This document shows positions 3,057-56,030 of a stretch of 64,000 bases of DNA, piece by piece. The first letter of the stretch is position 1. Each line of letters opens with the position of its first letter. The notes under the pieces were generated by a model. It did no database searches. It saw only the letters and a program-made list of their open reading frames with translations, and was not told the DNA's origin. This DNA comes from an uncultured Acidobacteriota bacterium. GTDB taxonomy: Bacteria; Acidobacteriota; Terriglobia; Acidiferrales; UBA7541. A program made the translations under genes and the position numbers. Where the stretch lies: positions 53,887 to 117,886 of the forward strand of contig CAVYDD010000007.1 in assembly GCA_963767225.1 (NCBI GenBank), written 5' to 3'.

Positions 3057-6000
3057 TTAATTCTCCGGCTTCGGGTAGTCGAAGCGGAAGGATTCGCCGG
3101 CTGGGCCTGCTACGCCTCGGGTGTTGTACTGCAGCATGTAGTCCATGTGCTGCGGGTCTTCCGGGTACGCTACGCCATCGGGATAGGGGTAGGGCACCGT
3201 GGTGTGGAACGGCAATGGGGTTACAGTGTCGCCGTGGGCGGCGTAGAAATCCATGTCTTTGGCGAAGCCGTTGGCGTAGAAGAAATAATCTCGGGTCCAG
3301 CCGTTGGGAATGTCGGGGAGATGGGTCGAGTCGAAATCTACCGAGACTTCATCGCCGGAGCCGAAGATTACGTATTCGTCGTCGGTTTTCTGCATGAGGT
3401 CGGTTATGTCGCCGTAGCGGGTGTAATTTCCGATTTGGCGGGCGTAGGGGCCTGTGGCGCTTACGTCTTCGTAAACGTAGGAGAGATCGTTTTTCGGATT
3501 GCCTTCGACCACGCGGGGGTAGCCGCGGAACTGCAGCTTGGCTTCAGCTAGCGGGACTTCGGTGAGTTTGAATTCGGTGTCTTCGGGGGAATTATCCACG
3601 CGGATGCGATCCCAATAGACGCGAAGATTGGTGGAGATACGGATGAAGCGGGCGCCGGGGGGAATTTTCCCGGTGAGGTCGGCGACCATGGTGCGGGCGA
3701 GGCCTGCGGGGAAGCCCATGTCGTCAATCACCTTGATCCATTGGCCGGAGCCGTCTTGCACTTCGACGAAGGGCGGGACGGGAGTGATGCCGGCTTGCCA
3801 GGCGGCGTACATGGAGCTGGCGCTGAAATAATCGGTGAAGCCGTCCATGAGCAAGCGCAGGGGGCGCGAGGAATCCCAATCGCCCAGGTCGAGTTCGATC
3901 CAGTGCATTTCGGCGATGCCTGCGTAGGGTGCGAGCGGGAAATTCGTGACGTATTTGTGATCTTGCTCGCGGAGGAGGGGGAGGAGATCGCGGCTGTGAT
4001 CGTCCCAAGCGCCGGCAGGGAGATGCGCGTCGCGGCTGGCGATTACTTTGAAGCGCGGGAAGGGGAGTTCGCTGGCGAAATGTTCGTTGGGGTAGACCTC
4101 GACGTCGATCGGGTGATCCACCGCGAGCAGGCGGGCTTGGTCGAGATAGTCGAGCTCCTCCATTGGTTCGAGCATCTTGAAACGCAGGCGGCCTTCTTGC
4201 GGTTGCGCTAGCGAGCCGGTGACTTTGAAATATTCGGCGGGGTTGGGAATGTTGCGTTGGTTGGGGCCGGTCCAGTGGCCGATGATGCCGGGGCCGATCA
4301 TGTCGGCGAGAAATTCGAATTTCTGGCCGTTCCAGACGAAGACGATGGGGCAGGAGCTGCCGCGGCGGTCAATTTCGGTTATCAGTTCTTCTTTGTGGGC
4401 TGGAATTTCCAGTTCGTCCTGCAGGACGCCGGTGGGCCAGAGGAGACGGATGACGTCGGCTTGGCGTTCGGCGCCCAGGCCGGCGACGATTGGGGCCGGG
4501 CCTTGTCCTAGATAGCCGGAGGCGCCGGGGACTTCCCACTTTTGTTGCAATGCGCCTGCGTACATTTCCACTTTCGTGCCGATACCGGATTTATTGTCGT
4601 TCTCGCCTTTGAAGGCGATTTTGAGCCAATTGTAACGATTGCCGCCGTCGTTCTTTAGTAGCACGGGTGGAAGATTATTTTGGGTAATTAGGAGATCGGT
4701 CGCGCCGTCGCCATCGAAATCGAAGGCGATGATGCCGCGGGGATTTTTCAGTGCGATTTTGTCGAGGCCGGTGGAGGCGGTTACGTCGCGAAAACCGGCG
4801 GCGCCTTCGTTGCGGAGCAGGACGATGTGTCCTGCGCCTGCGAAATCTTCGCCCACTGCTACCAGGTCCATCCAGCCGTCGTCATCGTAATCAATCGGTG
4901 CGAGGCCCCAGCCTCGCATCCAGTCGAGGTCTGGGAGATTCACCCGTTCAAAAGATTTTCCACTGTTGTTGCGCCAAAGGCTTAGGCCTGGGGCGCCCCA
5001 GTGCGTGAAGGCCAAGTCCATCCAGCCGTCCTTGTTGCAATCGAGCGCGACTACTCCGGCGGTGGGAGCGGGCATGTCGCTGCTCCAGGGCGTGGTGGCT
5101 TGGAATGCGCCCTCGCGGGGATTGAGATATGCGACTGGGGATTTTTGCCAGCCGGTTACGACGAAGTCTATGGCGCGATCGTTGTTGACGTCGCTGGCGA
5201 TGGCGCCTATCGAGGGCGCTGTGCCTGCCAGGGCCGTTTCCGTCGTCCAATTTGTGAAAGTGCCGTTGCCGTTGTTGCGCCACAGGACGTTGCCCGGGGG
5301 CGTGGTGTCTGCTGCGAATTCAAATGGGCCAGCCGGATTGGCTAGCGGGAAATCATTGAAGCGGGTGATGTAGAGATCGAGATCGCCATCGTGGTCGAAA
5401 TCAATGAAGGTCAGGCCGAGGGCCAGTGCGCCGGCCTGGGCTTCGGTGTCTATTCCAGCGTCTTGGGTGACGTCTTTGAATGTGCCATTGCCTTCGTTGT
5501 GGAAGAGGATGACTCTGCCGTTCATGGTTACGGCTAGATCGGGCTTGCCGTCGTTATCGTAATCACCTACGGCGCAGCCCATGCCTTGGCCGTGGATTTC
5601 GAGACGGGCTTCGCGCGTTACGTTTACGAACCTTCCTGCGCCGATATTTTTGTACAACGCGGAATTGCCTCGGCCGTCTGCGTCCACCAGGAAAATGTCG
5701 GGCTTGCCGTCGCCTTTGTAATCAATGATGCAGGCGCCGCTGCCGAGGAATTGCGCGAGAGCACTAGCGGGGGGTTGCGCCGCGGCTTTCGCAGTGCGCG
5801 TTTTTCGCATGGAGAGGGTTGCGCTACCGTCTACGGATGGCGTGGTGTCCGCTCTGCCGTGCAGTTGCGTAGATGCGCTGCGCGCTGTGACGGAGGTCGG
5901 CAAGTTGGCGGCTTGCGTGACGTTGATGAAATGGACCGGCATCGCTTGCGGCACTGGCTCGGGCGCTGGTTGCATGATTTCGGCGAGGGAATACTTTCCT

Positions 6001-18810: not shown

Positions 18811-19411
18811 CGGACGTTGCCTTAAAAGCGCGCGCGGCGGGCGCTGGAGGTGATGTGCAATGCGGCACGGTGTACTGTATTGCGCATGTTTGAAAAGTGG
18901 CGAGAGGCATAGTCGAGGATGCCGCGCAACAGCAGCGGAAATTCACAATGGGAGGCCCTCTACATGCATCGTGCACATCGTTATGCCGCTTCGCTGTTTT
19001 TAACCGCCGCTCTGGCCGCGCCGCGGTCAATGATGGCTGCGCCTGTACCGCAAGGAGCGGGCGTGCCGGTACGAGTCTAGCACTCCAGCCCCACGATTAT
19101 CACAACCGGGACGACCACGAGCGCCACAGATGGGGAGTGTACCTGTCGGACAACCACCGGCACGAGCACGAGTACTCGCGCGCCAATCATAAGGAGCCGA
19201 GGGATTACTGGAATTGGCGGCACGGTCATCGGGATTAATCGGCGGTAGTCGCAGCTTTTCGGATGGGGAAATGCCCCGCGACAGGGGCGTCCGGTCTGTC
19301 GCGTTGCGGATCGGACGCCATCTCAGGCGGGTGACTTCGGTGAAGAAGTGAACTTCGGTGTTGTGGTTCCCGCCGTTGAGAGTCTGTGTCAAAACACAAA
19401 GATCAGCACTT

Positions 19412-19428
19412 CAGCGGCTAAAGTTGCG
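19412..19428. repeat. copy of short REP-like motif CAGCGGCTAAAG(TT)GCG, 3' of methyltransferase gene
   Basis: The 12-mer CAGCGGCTAAAG is identical to the copies at 35645-35656 and 41612-41623. Confidence 0.4.
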
Positions 19429-19455
19429 TCGCGGAGGTGGCGGAGTCAAGGCGAG

Positions 19456-20253
19456 TCATGACGCCAGACCGTTGCTGCGGGGATAGCCGATGAGGTAGGC
19501 GATGGGGAATTCGCTGGTGAGGTTGACGCGTTCTCCCATTTCCCAGTGGTATTCGGTGGCGGATAGCTTTGCGATAATTTCGCGGAGTTCGTGCGGGCGG
19601 TAGCTGCGCAGGCAGGAGACGACTCCATCGAACAGTAGCACGAACGGAATTATGGGAAGGACGTAGGTGCAGGGCAAGCGCGACCAGCGGAAGGGACGGA
19701 TCCAGGGAGTCAACAGGAAGGGAAGAAGGGCCCAAAGAAACATGAGCGCGATGGCGGAGGGTGCGCGACGCGTGACTTCGAATATGCCGATGCCTTGATT
19801 TGCGTCTACGGCATTCTGAAGGATGGCGCGGGCTTCTTCGGGTTGAAAGTGATGGAAGGAGGTGAACATGGTGCGGAAGCCGTGCAGTTCGTGGGGGACG
19901 TCGGTGGCGTCCACCGGAGCGGAATGAAACGAGATGTGATTTTGCGATGCGGCGCTGGCGGATTGGAATGCGCCGAGGTTTGGATATTTATCGGTGAGGA
20001 GAATTCGCAGGGAGGCGTGATGGTTGCCGTGCAGGCGGCGAGAAAGTTTCAGCCAGGGGCCTCCGCCACCGGAACACATATCAATGATGCTGCTGTTGCG
20101 CGTTACGTCGAGCGAGGTTTGCAGCAGCGGGGCGACGGGCGCATAGGCACCGAAGAAATTCATAGCGGATTGCAGCGTGTCAGTGATTTGGTCGCGGAGG
20201 AATTTGGGGAACCATGATTGTTCGTGGAGTTCGATGAGATGCACGCGTCGCAT
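19456..20253 (-). CDS. class I SAM-dependent methyltransferase with C-terminal hydrophobic segment
   Basis: Motif I IIDMCSGGGGPW and overall Rossmann-fold methyltransferase pattern. Start is either ATG 20253 or TTG 20298. Family not identified. Confidence 0.6.
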   Translation of the reverse strand: MRRVHLIELHEQSWFPKFLRDQITDTLQSAMNFFGAYAPVAPLLQTSLDVTRNSSIIDMCSGGGGPWLKLSRRLHGNHHASLRILLTDKYPNLGAFQSASAASQNHISFHSAPVDATDVPHELHGFRTMFTSFHHFQPEEARAILQNAVDANQGIGIFEVTRRAPSAIALMFLWALLPFLLTPWIRPFRWSRLPCTYVLPIIPFVLLFDGVVSCLRSYRPHELREIIAKLSATEYHWEMGERVNLTSEFPIAYLIGYPRSNGLAS

Positions 20254-20367
20254 GGGAATTGGTTTGGTAGTATGCGGCAACTTTGGCGGAGGTGGCAAAT
20301 GGATTGGGCGGGGTGGAATGCGCGTAGCCAGAAGTGCCCTTCTGCCGCGGGCAGGGCTGTGCCACGG

Positions 20368-26494: not shown

Positions 26495-28393
26495 ATGAGA
26501 CAACAACGAAAACTTCTTCGGGCGCTCCCGCTGATTTCTATTTCTATCTTTGTTATGGCGACTGCGGATGTGTCCGGAGCGTTGCTGGGACCATCGGCGC
26601 GGGCGGCATATCAAAAGATGATAGAGCCACACGAGCAGCAGGCTGCGCATCCGCCCGCGCATGGGGAAACCGCGGCGGCGGAACCAGACGACACGGTGAA
26701 GCTGCGCCACCGCAGCGAGATCAGCAATCCTTATCATGTGGAATTTCGCGACGTGACCAGCGCGGCAGGAATTCATTTTCATCACGAGCGCGCGTCGTCG
26801 CCGCAGCGGCTGTACCCGGAGACGATGGGAGCTGGGGTCGGGTGGATTGATTACAACCAGGACGGATATCTGGACGCGATTTTTGTGAACAGCGGTTACA
26901 CGCCGTATTATCGCCCGCTGGTGCCGCCGCAGCCGGCGCTGTATCGCAACAATCGCGATGGAACGTTTACGGACGTGACCGAACAGAGCAAGATCCGCAG
27001 CGACGGGACATTTTATTTCGGCGTGGCTGTGGGCGATTACGATAACGACGGGTTTCCAGACATTTATATGACCGGTTACCGGCATTCGGTGCTGCTGCAC
27101 AACAACGGCGACGGAACGTTTACGGATGTGACCGCGAAGGCCGGAGTGGGCGACGAGGGAAACTGGGGCACGGCCGCGGGATGGTTCGATTACGATCACG
27201 ACGGCAAGCTGGATCTGCTGGTGACGAATTACGTGCAGTACGACGTGGACCATCCGGTGCTGTGCGGTGATGTACGTCCGGGCTTCACGGGCGTTCCGCA
27301 GACCAGCGCGTACTGCCATCCGGATAGTTTTCACGGGAGTTCGGCGAAGCTGTATCACAACAATGGCGATGGGACGTTTACGGACGTCACCGAGAAAGCA
27401 GGGTTGCTGAACACGGATGGGAAAAGTCTGGCGGTGGTGCTGGCAGATCTGAACGGAGACGGTTGGACTGATATCTTTATTGCGAACGACACACAGCGGA
27501 ACTTTTTGTACCTCAATAATGGTGACGGCACGTTTCGTGACGCGACTTTTAAATCGGGCGCGGGATTCAGCGAAGATGGGCGTTCGGAAGCGGGAATGAG
27601 CGCCGACGCAGGGGACGTGATGAACAACGGGCTGATGTATCTGTTCGTGAGCCACCTGGATTTCGAGCTAAATCGCATGTACCGGAATAATGGGGATGGG
27701 ACGTTCACGGATTACACTGTTGCCTCGGGGATCGGGCAGACGAATATTTTGCGGAGCGCGTTCGGCGCGCGATTTTTCGATTTTGATAATGATGGCTGGC
27801 GGGACCTGCTGGTGATCAACGGACATATTTTGGACAACATTCCGCTGTATCACCCGGAAGTGAAGTACGAAGAAGAAAAGATGCTGTACCGCAATCGCGG
27901 CGACGGGAATTTCGTGGATGCTACACGAACTGAGGGGGCGGATTTTCGCAAGCCACGCGTGGGACGAGGTCTCGCGGTAGGAGATTACGACAACGACGGG
28001 TGGCAGGATTTTCTGGTGAGCAATAATGGGGAGGATGCGCAGCTCTTCCGCAATGAGGGCGGAAGTTCTCCCGCGGCGCAGGAGAATCATTGGATCGCGG
28101 TGCGATTGATTGGCGTGAAATCGAATCGCGACGGCATCGGAGCTTCGTTGAAGTTGACGGCGGGAGATTTGAAGAGCTACGACCAGGCGAAGGGTGGAAT
28201 GAGTTATTGCTCGGCGCAGGATCCGCGAATTTATTTTGGCCTGGGGAAACACGAGAAGGTGGATTCGATTTTGATTCGGTGGCCTAGCGGGTACGTGCAG
28301 GAGCTGAAGGACATTCCTGCGGATATGATCGTTACCGTAACGGAAGGCGTAGACGCGAAAGCTGTGAAGTACAGACCCCCGCCGCAGAGATAG
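26495..28393 (+). CDS. ASPIC/UnbV domain protein with FG-GAP/VCBS repeats (CRTAC1 family), secreted
   Basis: 632 aa with signal peptide, eight or more DxDGDGxxD FG-GAP-type repeats, and the C-terminal UnbV_ASPIC signature (GVKSNRDGIGASLKLTAGD...IRWPSGYVQEL). Confidence 0.85.
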   Translation: MRQQRKLLRALPLISISIFVMATADVSGALLGPSARAAYQKMIEPHEQQAAHPPAHGETAAAEPDDTVKLRHRSEISNPYHVEFRDVTSAAGIHFHHERASSPQRLYPETMGAGVGWIDYNQDGYLDAIFVNSGYTPYYRPLVPPQPALYRNNRDGTFTDVTEQSKIRSDGTFYFGVAVGDYDNDGFPDIYMTGYRHSVLLHNNGDGTFTDVTAKAGVGDEGNWGTAAGWFDYDHDGKLDLLVTNYVQYDVDHPVLCGDVRPGFTGVPQTSAYCHPDSFHGSSAKLYHNNGDGTFTDVTEKAGLLNTDGKSLAVVLADLNGDGWTDIFIANDTQRNFLYLNNGDGTFRDATFKSGAGFSEDGRSEAGMSADAGDVMNNGLMYLFVSHLDFELNRMYRNNGDGTFTDYTVASGIGQTNILRSAFGARFFDFDNDGWRDLLVINGHILDNIPLYHPEVKYEEEKMLYRNRGDGNFVDATRTEGADFRKPRVGRGLAVGDYDNDGWQDFLVSNNGEDAQLFRNEGGSSPAAQENHWIAVRLIGVKSNRDGIGASLKLTAGDLKSYDQAKGGMSYCSAQDPRIYFGLGKHEKVDSILIRWPSGYVQELKDIPADMIVTVTEGVDAKAVKYRPPPQR

Positions 28394-34334: not shown

Positions 34335-35370
34335 CGCGCTGGCGGTTGTGACATTTGCCGTGATGCCTGCGCGGAGTGCGCGGCGGCCGCGGTATGGGGG
34401 GACCTTGCGCGTGGAGATTGGGGCGAGTATTGCATCGCTTGATCCGCCTGTCGCGACCTCCTCGCCGGAAGAAGTGGTGGCACTCGCGCAGATCGGGCCG
34501 CTTGTGTTTGAGCATTGGGGCGCGGTTGATACGCCTATCGGAGCGGCTGGGAGTGGGCCGTTTCGGGTGACGGCGTTCGAGGCGGGCAAGCGGGCGGTGC
34601 TGGCGGCGAATGAGGAATTTCGCGAGGGGCGACCATTTGTGGATGGGATTGAGATTGCCATGGGGCGGAGCGCACACGAGCGGCTTGTTGACCTGGAATT
34701 GAGCAAAACGGATCTGACGGAGATTGCGCCGCAAGATGCGCGGCGGGCCGCGGAACAGGGGGTACGCGTTAGCGCTTCGCAGCCGGACGAATTGCTGGCG
34801 CTGGTTTTTGTCGGTGGGAATACTGCGCCGAACGCAGCAACCGCGGCGAGTGCTCGCTCGACCGCAAAGGTTTCTGGCCAAGCGACCGCACAAAAGACCG
34901 GGCCAGCGAATGGACCGGCGCGCGGTGGGGCAGCCGAACCGGCAATGGGGCAGGCGCTATCGCTTGCGATTGATCGCGTTGCGATTGTAAATTTTATTTT
35001 GCAGAAGACTGGGGAAGCTGCGGGCGGGTTGCTGCCGCAGTGGTCGAGTGGGGCTGCGTTTTTGTTTCCGGCGGGGGCGCCGAGCGCGGCGGATCTGGAG
35101 CACGCGAAGGAACTCTCGAAGGAAATCGCGGCGGCGGGGCCTTTGGTGTTGGGATATGATTCCGCTGATCCGCTGGAGCAGAGTGTGGCGGAGCGAATTG
35201 TGGTGAACGCGAAGGAAGCGGGGATGGCATTGCGGGCGCAGGCTATTCCTGGTGCTGCCGTGGGGAATTCGCGCAGCGCCGGGTTGCAAACGGTGCATGT
35301 AGATGCGCGATTGGTGCGCTGGCGGATGACGTCGCCGCAGCCGGGCGAGGCGCTCCGGAGCATTTTTTAG
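34291..35370 (+). CDS. secreted protein with SBP_bac_5-like (ABC substrate-binding family 5) N-terminal region, short/divergent
   Basis: Signal peptide MNTRLILLQRFAVISALAVVTFAVMPARSA followed by a YGGTLRV motif typical of family-5 solute-binding proteins. Only 359 aa, against ~500 for the family. Confidence 0.4.
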   Translation: MNTRLILLQRFAVISALAVVTFAVMPARSARRPRYGGTLRVEIGASIASLDPPVATSSPEEVVALAQIGPLVFEHWGAVDTPIGAAGSGPFRVTAFEAGKRAVLAANEEFREGRPFVDGIEIAMGRSAHERLVDLELSKTDLTEIAPQDARRAAEQGVRVSASQPDELLALVFVGGNTAPNAATAASARSTAKVSGQATAQKTGPANGPARGGAAEPAMGQALSLAIDRVAIVNFILQKTGEAAGGLLPQWSSGAAFLFPAGAPSAADLEHAKELSKEIAAAGPLVLGYDSADPLEQSVAERIVVNAKEAGMALRAQAIPGAAVGNSRSAGLQTVHVDARLVRWRMTSPQPGEALRSIF

Positions 35371-35643
35371 CGGTTGATACGGACACGATGAAGCCGCTAG
35401 ACGCAGTACCGTTCCCGGACCGGCAACGCCGGAGGACATTTATAAGCAGCAGCGGGCGGTGTTGAACACGTATCGCGTGGTGCCGTTGGTTTGGCTGCCG
35501 CAGGTTTACGGTCTCAGCGCGCGCGTGCGGGATTGGAAAGCGCCGGGGCCGGGCGAGAATTGGCCGCTGGCGGATGTTTGGTTGGAAGCAGATGTGGCGA
35601 CGGGCGTGCAGTGAGGTGGTGTCGCAGACCTGGAGTGGGAACT

Positions 35644-35700
35644 GCAGCGGCTAAAGCCGCGCGGAAATTACAATGCTGCTGTCGTGGCTAAAGCCACGAC
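35644..35700. repeat. pair of REP-like hairpins (GCAGCGGCTAAAGCCGC and GTCGTGGCTAAAGCCACGAC)
   Basis: Two stem-loops share a GGCTAAAGCC core with a TAAA loop. The first is identical to the 17-mer at 41611-41627, and the second forms a perfect 8-bp stem. Confidence 0.45.
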
Positions 35701-35784
35701 CCACAAAGATTCTAGGACGCACAGGCAAGAGGGGCGCCTCCGTCGAGACTTCGGCGGGCGGCCCCGTACCACCAAAGGAACATC

Positions 35785-40601: not shown

Positions 40602-41603
40602 GTGATGACGATTAATCCAGCGTGGTTTGCGGCGGGTGGAGTGTGCGCGGCGGGCGGGTTGTTTGCGTGGGGGGCGCTCGCGCCGGGTTCGCAGCTTTTC
40701 GGGCGGACGTTGCGGCGTTTGGATGATGCGTCATGCATGGCGATTACGTTTGATGATGGACCGAATCCGTCTGTTACGCCGGGAGTGCTTGAGCTTCTTG
40801 CGCGGCACAACGCGACGGCTACTTTTTTTCTGATTGGGCAGCGGGTGCGTGCGTTTCCGGCTCTTGCGCGGGAGATTGCGGAGCGGGGGCACGCGATTGG
40901 CAATCACACGGAGACTCATCCTTCGCTGACATTTCTAACGCCGGGACGAATCGCGGAGGAACTCGACCGATGCGATGAAGCGATCGTTTCCGCTACGGGA
41001 AAATCGGCGCGATGGATGCGGCCGCCGTTTGGATATCGCAGCCCTTTGCTCGATGGAATCGTGCGGCGGCGCGGCGGGGCAGGGGTGGCGATGTGGAATG
41101 TGGCGGCGCGGGATTGGCGGACGCACGCGCCTGAGCCGGTGATTCAGCGCTTGCGCAGGGCGCGTGGCGGGGATATCGTCCTTTTACACGATGGCGATCA
41201 TCGCGTCCTGGAAGGGAAACGCGGGCACGTGCTGGCGGCTTTGGAATATTGGTTGCCGCGCTGGCGCGACGCGGGGATACAATTTGTGAATCTGGACAGA
41301 AGGGCAATTCAAAACTCAGGCGGGCTAAAGCGCATGGACGAAAAAAGATATTACGACGAGAAGCCCGAAACCAAGCAGATGACATTGGTTTGTCCGCATT
41401 GCCGGGAAGAGGGAGTGTACCCGGTGCGGTGGATGGCGCGCACGAAGAAGGGCGCGCTGCCTCCGGGCGGAAATGAGGACGATCGCGCGAAATTCGCGAA
41501 GGCGCGGTCTTATATGGTGCGCATGGACGATATGGTGGCGTGCCGGAATATTCGTTGCCGGAAGCGATTTGATCTTACCGGGCAGACCGTGATTCTTACC
41601 TAG
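40602..41603 (+). CDS. polysaccharide deacetylase (NodB-homology, CE4) with C-terminal Cys4 zinc-ribbon-like extension
   Basis: ITFDDGPNPSVTPGVLELLARHNATATFFLIGQRV NodB motifs 1-2. His ligands HTETHP. C-terminal CPHCREEGVY...CRNIRCRKRF. Confidence 0.8.
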   Translation: MMTINPAWFAAGGVCAAGGLFAWGALAPGSQLFGRTLRRLDDASCMAITFDDGPNPSVTPGVLELLARHNATATFFLIGQRVRAFPALAREIAERGHAIGNHTETHPSLTFLTPGRIAEELDRCDEAIVSATGKSARWMRPPFGYRSPLLDGIVRRRGGAGVAMWNVAARDWRTHAPEPVIQRLRRARGGDIVLLHDGDHRVLEGKRGHVLAALEYWLPRWRDAGIQFVNLDRRAIQNSGGLKRMDEKRYYDEKPETKQMTLVCPHCREEGVYPVRWMARTKKGALPPGGNEDDRAKFAKARSYMVRMDDMVACRNIRCRKRFDLTGQTVILT

Positions 41604-41610
41604 CAGCGCC

Positions 41611-41627
41611 GCAGCGGCTAAAGCCGC
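41611..41627. repeat. REP-like 17-mer GCAGCGGCTAAAGCCGC, 8 nt downstream of deacetylase stop
   Basis: Identical to 35644-35660. Forms a GCGGC/GCCGC stem with a TAAA loop. Confidence 0.45.
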
Positions 41628-41836
41628 AATGGTTTTGCGGCGGTTGTGGCACGCCTGAAGCAGCCGTACCCTGACGAAACTTACCGGTTCTCGGTTTTAC
41701 ACCCCATTCACAGAAGACTACCGCGGGAAGAAGTGCCGAAGGCGGGCACGGAGGCAGCCGGAATAGTCGCTGGGAGTACTAGGCCCGCCCCCCACGCTCA
41801 ATCATTGTAAAAAGATTGTCATCCCAGCGTGTTCGC

Positions 41837-55358: not shown

Positions 55359-56030
55359 CTAGGCTCTGCCGAGGTGCAGCGGCCGCTCGAGAACCAGTTC
55401 GAGCTTCATATTTTGCGGCAGGGTGAGCTCCTGGCCCAGGCCCGAGGTGATCATGAATGCAGTGGCGGCGGAAATGGCCGCACCCATCGCTGCATCTTGT
55501 TTATTTTTCGAGGCAATCCCAGGCTCGGCGCCGATGAATGCGGCTTCGGCGGCGGCGAAAGCCGCGTCTTCTTGTTTGCTGGTGGTGGCGCGGATTTCGC
55601 CTTCGCGATCGTAGAGCACGCGAATGGAATGAACGCCTGGGGCGTCAATCAGATCGGCTACCAGAGGTATCCAGCCGGTGGAACTGCGGATCTCGTCGAA
55701 AGTGAGCCAGAGGCGCGCGCGACCTACTTTTCCAGCGGGCTGAATCTTGTCAATGTGGCCGCGGATTTGCGCTCCGGAGGGAAGGGTGGCGCCTTCGGCC
55801 GAAGCGATAGGTTCGAGGGTGCGCGCCAGGAATTGCTTGCCGACTTTATCTTCTTTAGTGGAAATACTGGTTTGCAGGGATATCAGGAAACGGGTGCCGC
55901 GTGAGGCGGCGTCGGGTGGCGCGTCTTGGGATTGGGAAGCGGGATCCTGCGACTGTGGTTGCGCGTGGGCTGCTGCGCCTGAACTCAGCACAAGAACCGA
56001 CGTAAATGCGAAAATCCTCCAGCGTTTCAT
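55359..56030 (-). CDS. secreted TrbI/VirB10-like domain protein, paralog of 47365..48333
   Basis: Start at MKRWRIFAFTSVLVLSSGAAAHA (ATG 56030). The core GTRFLISLQTSISTKEDKVGKQFLARTLEPIASAEGATLPSGAQIRGHIDKIQPAGKVGRARLWLTFDEI aligns position-by-position with the 47365 protein (GT.I/F.L...ST+..+.G..F...L.P....G..+P.G+.+.G.+...+P.G+V.GR..L.+......). Confidence 0.45.
   Translation of the reverse strand: MKRWRIFAFTSVLVLSSGAAAHAQPQSQDPASQSQDAPPDAASRGTRFLISLQTSISTKEDKVGKQFLARTLEPIASAEGATLPSGAQIRGHIDKIQPAGKVGRARLWLTFDEIRSSTGWIPLVADLIDAPGVHSIRVLYDREGEIRATTSKQEDAAFAAAEAAFIGAEPGIASKNKQDAAMGAAISAATAFMITSGLGQELTLPQNMKLELVLERPLHLGRA

Follow-up and report, generated by a model that had tools for sequence, protein, structure and literature searches.

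We conclude that three sites in the window (the whole 64-kb stretch of DNA that was analysed) are non-autonomous copies of a REP-type repeat family that consists of two hairpins, is linked to RAYT transposases and is widespread in Terriglobia. We put the probability of this reading at about 80%. One copy is complete, one is decayed and one is truncated, and all three are relics that lie right after stop codons. The unit of the family is a module of about 75 nt, in which hairpin 1, a spacer of about 20 nt, an 8-bp hairpin 2 and a foot, of GT[AG]G type when the opposite strand is read, follow in this order. Hairpin 2 is a canonical REP: it is a short palindrome with an 8-bp stem and a 4-nt loop, and with its foot it reads GTGG-GTCGTGGC... 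on the minus strand of the window. A REP-type palindrome was among the possibilities raised in the initial annotation. This view stands insofar as the repeats are dispersed, intergenic, located 3' of genes, equipped with a GT[AG]G-type foot and found flanking RAYT genes in related genomes, but the canonical REP is hairpin 2 and not the 17-mer.

The 12-mer CAGCGGCTAAAG occurs at 19412, 35645 and 41612, in each case on the plus strand, and none of 100 dinucleotide-preserving shuffles gave a match. The 17-mer GCAGCGGCTAAAGCCGC is present exactly at 35644 and 41611, GGCTAAAGCC exactly at 35649, 35686 and 41616, and GTCGTGGC-TAAA-GCCACGAC forms a perfect 8-bp hairpin at 35681-35700, 20 nt past hairpin 1. 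The earlier claims that the threefold 12-mer lies far above chance (three occurrences versus zero expected in shuffles), that the 17-mer recurs at a second site and that a perfect TAAA-loop hairpin sits 20 nt from it are thus borne out. The view that the 17-mer hairpin and the hairpin at 35681 are copies of one short hairpin family is not, as each of them is half of a single bipartite module. A profile built from 23 metagenome copies (nhmmer, E<0.01) matched the window at the three sites only, with E values of 1e-12, 3e-6 and 1e-4.

Copy 1 (35613-35729, plus strand) is full but decayed and spans about 117 nt; a diverged left terminal repeat precedes hairpin 1, the spacer, hairpin 2 and the foot, after which comes a right arm that has likewise diverged. 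Its hairpin 1 is the 17-mer GCAGCGGCTAAAGCCGC at 35644-35660 (plus strand), with 35647-35651 pairing with 35656-35660 around a TAAA loop; in related genomes, this very sequence codes for P-Q-R-L-K-P at the 3' ends of RAYT genes. Hairpin 2 and its foot occupy 35681-35708 on the plus strand (GTCGTGGC-TAAA-GCCACGAC followed by CCACAAAG), and on the minus strand they read CTTTGTGG-GTCGTGGC-TTTA-GCCACGAC, a GTGG-footed REP. The copy scores 62.9 bits over 35639-35712 with a covariance model of whose training set it is a member; the independent profile of metagenome copies recovers it with E 1e-12 and an envelope of 35616-35726. Its flanks agree with the terminal-repeat consensus at about 10 of 17 positions, read by eye. 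It is predicted to fold into two separate hairpins (-28.7 kcal/mol, z -4.1).

Copy 2 (41606-41682, plus strand) belongs to a sister subfamily, in which hairpin 1 (41611-41627) lies inside an outer helix formed by 41607-41613 and 41636-41642. Its hairpin 2 is decayed (41648-41670, GGCACGCC TGAAGCA GCCGTACC) and is followed by the foot CTGACGAAA at 41671-41679. It scores 60.0 bits with the covariance model, again as a training member, and E 3e-6 with nhmmer, and it resembles the GGCACGCC-TGAA-GGCGTGCC-CTGATACGAA copies found in two other contigs (L045 and L071). Copy 3 (19380-19428, plus strand) is a truncated left half, with the left terminal repeat GAGTCTGTGTCAAAACA, the left arm and a hairpin 1 (TCAGCGGCTAAAGTTGC) whose stem depends on two G-T pairs; no hairpin 2 follows. 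Positions 1-50 of the nhmmer profile align to 19380-19429 (E 1e-4), and 36 of 42 specified consensus positions agree by hand count, whereas the bipartite covariance model gives only 5.7 bits because hairpin 2 is missing. Two other features of the window were noted in passing. The sequence GCGGCGGCGAAAGCCGC at 55549-55565 differs from the 17-mer at two positions, has a GAAA loop, scores 14.7 bits with the covariance model and is without a second hairpin; it is probably a chance resemblance. Within the ORF at 26495-28393, six tandem-like coding repeats of about 34 nt (…AACAATGGCGATGGGACGTTTACGGA…) are spaced 150-260 nt apart over 26940-27918, and our guess is that they are of the FG-GAP/VCBS type.

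A stop codon is found within about 30 nt of each of the three copies, in line with the initial annotation, whose account of the neighbouring genes nevertheless needs amending. Compared with its 94%-related ortholog, the SBP gene carries a 2-nt deletion near 35374, and its true C-terminal segment runs not to 35370 but to a stop at 35612-35614, so that copy 1 begins at this stop and 30 nt separate the stop from the 17-mer. The stop at 41603 is not that of the deacetylase. It belongs to the ortholog of a small 89-aa ORF that a 1-nt insertion near 41298 has joined to the deacetylase in the window. At 19412 the flanking ORFs are convergent, and the stop of the minus-strand ORF 19456-20298 is 28 nt away; a Pfam search gave no methyltransferase match for this ORF. 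The two frameshifts of the window relative to the 94%-related contig L125, near 35368-35376 (beside a T-run, truncating the SBP_bac_5 gene) and at about 41298, each precede an element copy by about 250-300 nt, and real pseudogenisation or assembly indels could account for them. An insertion of about 29 nt (GGGGCGCCTCCGTCGAGACTTCGGCGGGCGGCC, about 35733-35762), able to form a small hairpin (CCGTCG...CGGCGG), was also seen between copy 1 and the start of the kinase gene and is missing in four related contigs (L125, L127, L128 and L129).

The 17-mer was searched for in one genome per species and was found in at least 119 genome stretches, about 60% of which, among the matches listed and judging by record names, are from Acidobacteriota and mostly from Terriglobia. 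The acidobacterial carriers include Acidobacteriaceae, Korobacteraceae, Sulfotelmatobacter and the isolate Occallatibacter savannae. The other matches are mostly in alanine-rich coding sequence, since GCA GCG GCT AAA GCC reads A-A-A-K-A. The histidine kinase of the window is 73-94% identical to proteins whose named sources are Ca. Acidiferrales (Terriglobia). A metagenome scan with the 20-mer of hairpin 2 found at least 120 stretches, with 125 copies among the matches listed. At least 78 of these 125 carry a CCAC foot (GTGG on the opposite strand) and at least 21 a CTAC foot (GTAG), which is to say the canonical REP tetranucleotide, and at least 70 have TCAGCGGCT[AG]AAGCCG upstream. The full pattern of hairpin 1, spacer and hairpin 2 is present in 59 copies, and in 46 of them the matched motifs are separated by 21 nt. 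Typical full modules of the Terriglobia family also occur in contigs from a MAG labelled 'Clostridia' (L045) and one labelled 'Binatia' (L073). Mis-binning of these contigs is one possible reason, transfer of the element between phyla another.

The bipartite architecture is regular across these genomes. Among the matches listed, 64 acidobacterial 17-mer matches are followed 15-25 nt on by a second hairpin of 7-8 bp with a TGAA or TAAA loop, and subfamilies differ in the tail behind it (CTGATAC, CCACCC, CTTTCAAA or CTACAAAG). As the 17-mer is regularly paired with a second hairpin, the window hairpins at 35644 and 35681 are hairpins 1 and 2 of one copy. The module consensus is (C/T)CAG, a 4-5 bp stem with a T[AG]AA loop, the spacer, an 8-bp stem with a T[GA]AA loop and a foot whose opposite strand gives GT[AG]G, GGGTGG or the like. 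Feet such as GGGTGG or GTATCAG characterise other subfamilies, and the foot of hairpin 1 is NCAG only. In an alignment of 66 modules, both sides of hairpin 2 change at all eight pairs, and 90.7% of cells are paired. Covariation scores 0.279, versus 0.075 in shuffled alignments; none of 500 shuffles reaches this value, and slid registers give 0.03-0.10. Hairpin 1 is invariant in this alignment by construction, the modules having been seeded with the 17-mer. A survey anchored on hairpin 2 found that hairpin 1 also varies in a compensated manner (CAG-GGGC/GCCC, CAG-CGCC/GGCG and CAG-GCGC/GCGC), with the CAG kept.

Covariation of this strength and the stable fold of copy 1 (z -4.1) are what a family of structured small or cis-regulatory RNAs would also present. 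We consider such an identity highly improbable. Covariation is equally expected of DNA hairpins recognised by a transposase, the modules occur in mixed orientation to genes, and no promoter-like sites lie nearby. Searches of the window and 18 loci against Rfam, in gathering and E-value modes, returned no family for the repeat, the best sub-threshold score being 11.3 bits. G-U pairs, moreover, are nearly missing: among 527 cells there are 5 G-T versus 13 A-C combinations, so that pairing at the DNA level fits at least as well as pairing at the RNA level, and a strand-specific tolerance of G-U as a sign of an RNA role is unsupported. A resemblance to the Rfam Transposase-2 family (about 11 bits) was dismissed, together with an Acido-Lenti-1 match, as noise or an irrelevant neighbour. 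The latter (RF01687, 47.7 bits; L007, 816-861, minus strand) is a different element, found among a cluster of other repeats in the same spacer as a module and some 100 nt upstream of it.

The modules have the distribution of classical REPs, being dispersed, mostly extragenic and biased to the 3' sides of genes. About 54 of 64 are intergenic according to a home-made codon log-odds gene caller that is imperfect and mis-called at least one window gene; the window itself holds three copies in 64 kb. In the loci, the median distance past stop codons is tens of nucleotides. The flanking genes are in tandem in 33 cases, with the element antisense in 23 and sense in 10, convergent in 11 and divergent in three. 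The divergent class is depleted (3/47, p ~0.001), and the orientation bias among tandem pairs is modest (23 vs 10, p 0.035).

Gene order around the window kinase is kept in four related contigs, which allowed orthologous sites to be compared. The first site is the spacer that separates the SBP gene from the kinase gene. Here the window shares the element with L125 and L127 (94% related), in which hairpin 1 has already decayed; L128 (86%) and L129 (84%, with a spacer of only 92 nt) lack it. At the second, that of copy 2, the element occurs in the window only and is absent at the orthologous position of L125, L127 and L129; copy 2 sits at the point where the gene order of the window stops agreeing with that of related genomes. 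This presence and absence is the pattern expected of mobile DNA.

Placement so close to stop codons, both in the window and in the other loci, would also suit hairpins that the host evolved in place as immobile 3' elements, either terminators or mRNA stabilisers. A T-rich spacer follows hairpin 1 in many copies, and the hairpin at 41614 was flagged as terminator-like. This explanation is nevertheless quite improbable. The same sequence recurs at non-orthologous sites in many genera, it takes both orientations to the upstream gene (23 vs 10), its presence differs between orthologous sites, and it is associated with RAYT genes and with target duplications (see below). The elements also fall outside the definition of an intrinsic terminator, since hairpin 2 lacks a T-tract and is followed instead by CCACAAAG, CTGATAC or similar; a weak T-rich tail is present only after hairpin 1 at 41614. 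The mRNA-stabilising or protein-binding role that had also been suggested may be a secondary consequence.

The link to RAYT transposases comes from related genomes. The initial annotation had recommended looking for such a gene; none was found in the 64-kb window, but seven independent loci in related genomes and metagenomes have a RAYT gene between inverted repeats of this family. Four of these were reached by seeding with the motif (L009, L021, L039 and L141), and three were fetched by protein identity alone (L120, L121 and L122, the last representing L122-124). A motif scan and Pfam identified Y1_Tnp genes in L009, L021 and L039, where the order is foot, hairpin 2, spacer and hairpin 1, then the gene, then hairpin 1, spacer, hairpin 2 and foot. 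Upstream modules at the RAYT loci are all on the minus strand and downstream modules all on the plus strand. In L121, for example, the covariance model finds five copies upstream (minus) and three downstream (plus), and L120 and L122 have the same polarity. The proteins of L009, L021, L039 and L141 score 100-116 bits against NCBIfam NF047646 'REP-associated tyrosine transposase' (cut-off 80), and three of the four fall under the IS200 cut-off. The L039 protein, the sole one searched against PDB, has E. coli TnpA-REP (4ER8) as its best match (E 3e-10).

The module does more than flank these genes. The right-hand copy lies inside the 3' coding end of the RAYT gene, where CCG CAG CGG CTA AAG CCG is translated as P-Q-R-L-K-P, and it supplies the last ~20 codons and the stop codon. 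The stop is located just before hairpin 2 in L039, in the loop of hairpin 2 in L021 and L120-L122, and in the loop of hairpin 1 in L009. A total of 3659 homologs of the L039 protein were found at E<=1e-10, and some are named 'REP-associated tyrosine transposase [Ca. Korobacteraceae]'. Among the best 120 of these 3659, 104 end in ...DELPQRLKP followed by about 10 variable residues, typically closing with MHR or MHC; this end (ATG CAC CGC TGA) is the 5' arm and loop of hairpin 2. In L141, a contig of the window subfamily, the RAYT gene (Y1_Tnp E 1e-10; NF047646 105 bits) lies between an inverted module (613-687, minus) and a GTCGTGGC module (1173-1246, plus), and here the nucleotides of hairpin 1 are read in another frame, TCA GCG GCT AAA GCC, as S-A-A-K-A. 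We infer from the retention of one DNA motif in two reading frames that the constraint on hairpin 1 acts on the nucleic acid rather than on the peptide. At the other end of the gene, the inverted left module in L120-L122 ends in ...GGCTTTAGCCGCTGAGGTAAAC directly 5' of the ATG, as does that of L039 (module 2600-2671). The GAGG before the ATG is likely a ribosome-binding site, so that the foot of hairpin 1 (CTGAGG) seemingly supplies that of the transposase. A longer Y1_Tnp protein (264 aa) is encoded at 92-883 of L106 and probably represents a separate lineage of Y1 transposases in these genomes. It lies about 2.5 kb from the sole module located in that contig, the seed copy at 3376-3447, and was left uncounted as a REPtron.

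Some modules are part of a longer form. About half of the fully alignable copies of the window subfamily (alignment A3, 59 metagenome copies) are complete elements of about 120 nt that end in 17-bp terminal inverted repeats, GAGTCTGTGTGAGAACT ... AGTTCTCACACAGACTC. The 4-mers on either side of the element are identical in 15 of 24 complete copies versus 1 of 24 in the control, and at least three of the four nucleotides agree in 21 of 24. These 4-mers are mostly TGAA, TAAA or TTCA, and the next 6 nt outward are complementary, at a mean of 4.0 of 6 positions. The identical 4-mers and complementary outer flanks indicate that the ~120-nt elements sit in the loops of REP-type hairpins that were already present, with a 4-bp target duplication. 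At the level of the family, terminal inverted repeats and a duplication of fixed length are thus both present, as in MITEs. Window copies 1 and 3 belong to this form; their terminal repeats are decayed in copy 1 and reduced to the left one in copy 3, and duplications are for this reason unreadable in the window. RNAalifold applied to the ~120-nt alignment gave only the two hairpins because half of the rows are without terminal repeats. Related families have the terminal repeats CAGGCTGCGGAAAAACT and AGGGAAACTCTGATCAAG. Nesting reaches three levels in L190 (1328-1590), where a hairpin loop holds a MITE of family i whose hairpin-1 loop in turn holds a MITE of family ii. TGAA duplications are present at each level, and the inner MITE carries a two-hairpin module of its own, whose foot is CCCCTAAAAAA.

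These observations give weight to a different reading, in which the elements are plain MITEs of a DDE-type transposase that targets T[GA]AA hairpin loops and the RAYT link is incidental, a product of repeat-rich spots. HUH enzymes such as those of IS200/IS605 make no target duplications, and the inverted repeats, the 4-bp duplications within loops, the nesting and the near-consensus left terminal repeat of window copy 3 all speak for MITEs. We consider it unlikely that this is the whole explanation, as about 55 of the 66 modules seeded by the 17-mer have no terminal-repeat arms, strictly inverted modules abut the gene at seven of seven RAYT loci, and the module provides the last ~20 codons and the stop of the transposase. 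An autonomous IS with these terminal repeats was found neither in the ~1.6 Mb of loci, a small sample, nor as a plasmid match. A long terminal-repeat pair in L154, the one inspected out of three, proved to be two separate MITEs, and ORFs beside orphan terminal repeats look like host genes, judged from their first residues.

We therefore retain the RAYT-linked family as the preferred explanation of the window sites. The steps proposed for it follow established RAYT and IS200/IS605 biochemistry. Most likely, a RAYT (an HUH-Y1 enzyme) would bind the folded hairpin 2 and its foot on single-stranded DNA, cut it and rejoin it, and this activity would spread modules to new intergenic sites. In related genomes, both ends of RAYT genes consist of inverted module copies. 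The ~120-nt form lands in T[GA]AA loops of existing hairpins, where it generates 4-bp target duplications, and it would be moved by a separate, putative DDE-type transposase. Because 4-bp duplications misfit HUH-type transposition, the proximate vehicle of window copies 1 and 3 may have been a different enzyme. Once in place, the window copies may also act as mRNA 3'-end hairpins that stabilise or end the upstream mRNAs.

A broader proposition, which we advance tentatively and rate at somewhat less than even odds, is that Terriglobia harbor selfish DNA in two tiers, with RAYT-linked REP modules building the ends of transposase genes and their T[GA]AA loops serving as landing pads for the ~120-nt MITEs. 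In the first tier, modules would supply the RAYT gene with its ends, its final ~20 codons and stop and probably its ribosome-binding site, with the nucleotide motif of hairpin 1 kept across two frames, one clade reading it as PQRLKP and a different one as SAAKA. In the second, MITEs would bring the same modules with them and so create fresh landing pads as they spread. If this were true, it would represent a long-lived REP-RAYT system outside Proteobacteria that is parasitised by a second transposon. The recognition hairpin that overlaps the coding end of the transposase and the nested MITEs that target its loops are leads on the interplay of HUH and DDE elements.

The family is of interest for other reasons. 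Work on REPs and RAYTs has been almost all in Proteobacteria, and the repeats described here are a sequence-defined, abundant example in Acidobacteriota, a dominant but little-studied soil phylum. Such repeats can mislead the binning and assembly of soil MAGs, and they are usable as strain-typing markers. They also seed spurious ORF starts. In L134 (+2380) and L177 (+920), hairpin 2 holds an ATG (ATG TCG TGG CTA AAG CCA CGA CCC ACA AAG, translated as MSWLKPRPTK), and callers that favor the longest ORF stretch downstream genes into the repeat. ATG-bearing hairpins 2 are likely a source of mis-annotated N-termini in Terriglobia MAGs.

The closest relatives are the REPtrons (REP/BIME with RAYT/TnpA-REP) of E. 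coli, Pseudomonas and Stenotrophomonas, reportedly described by Nunvar in 2010 and Ton-Hoang in 2012. The term covers REP/BIME repeats together with RAYT (TnpA-REP) genes in these bacteria (Quentin 2018, PMC6006769; Di Nocera 2013, PMC3733652). Like them, the acidobacterial family has a short, GC-rich hairpin with a GT[AG]G foot, is dispersed, intergenic and 3' of genes, has stem subfamilies with compensatory changes and places the RAYT gene between inverted copies. The short REPs of RAYT subclass 2.5 (e.g., GTAGGGGCGACTTCAGTCGCC) match it in layout and even in their TTCA/TTTA loops. Of the repeats described in the literature, these short GTAG REPs come nearest, together with the composites of a REP and an unrelated stem-loop that flank some Pseudomonas RAYTs. 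In contrast to REPtrons, the dispersed unit in Acidobacteriota is a fixed pair of unlike hairpins, one short and CAG-footed and one long and GT[AG]G-footed, hairpin 1 lies inside the 3' coding end of the RAYT gene, and a terminal-repeat derivative with target duplications exists.

Hairpin doublets linked to RAYTs are known as REPINs, in which the doublet is the replicating unit (Bertels and Rainey; PMC5581495). The likeness ends there, as a REPIN consists of two inverted copies of one REP that form one long hairpin. In the acidobacterial module, the two hairpins are unlike in stem length and sequence, their loops have the same polarity, and each folds on its own. Hairpin 1 also lacks a GT[AG]G foot and does not repeat hairpin 2 in inverted form; being unlike and not inverted, the pair falls outside the definition. 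Closer in composition are the TIRtrons (TIRYT), in which RAYT-like genes lie between long inverted repeats made of a REP and a second stem-loop that are also dispersed. In Di Nocera 2013 (PMC3733652), double repeats of a 'REP unit + unrelated stem-loop' flank ppf607 of P. putida and pfs4255 of P. fluorescens, and composite repeats at Pseudomonas RAYT-like genes join a degenerate REP to a second stem-loop and occur in hundreds of dispersed copies.

That source treats acidobacterial RAYT-like genes as a distinct group. The acidobacterial repeats whose sequences are given in the literature (the figure sequences of that source aside), for example GGGTGC-CCCACATCTC-GCA-GAGATGTGGG and the Solibacter class-3 CCGAGCCGCGAC..., differ from ours, and we rejected the Solibacter class-3 REP-like repeats and the listed RAYT-flanking repeats as members of the same family. 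A literature search found no paper describing this repeat family, and the motif itself matched only unrelated primers. Acidobacterial RAYT-like genes are thus already known, and this repeat family seems to be undescribed.

With IS200/IS605 elements, the acidobacterial system shares the transposase fold and motifs (Y1_Tnp; PDB 2XM3, E 0.005) and subterminal hairpins at both ends. Unlike in IS200/IS605, the proteins score above the RAYT cut-off (three of them also below the IS200 cut-off), and copies of the repeat are far more numerous than the gene. IS1397, ISKpn1 and ISPpu9/10 insert into REP hairpin loops with 3-4 bp duplications. The ~120-nt form resembles them in its insertion into REP loops with a short duplication and differs in that the inserting element is a MITE, which itself carries two target hairpins and so makes nesting possible.
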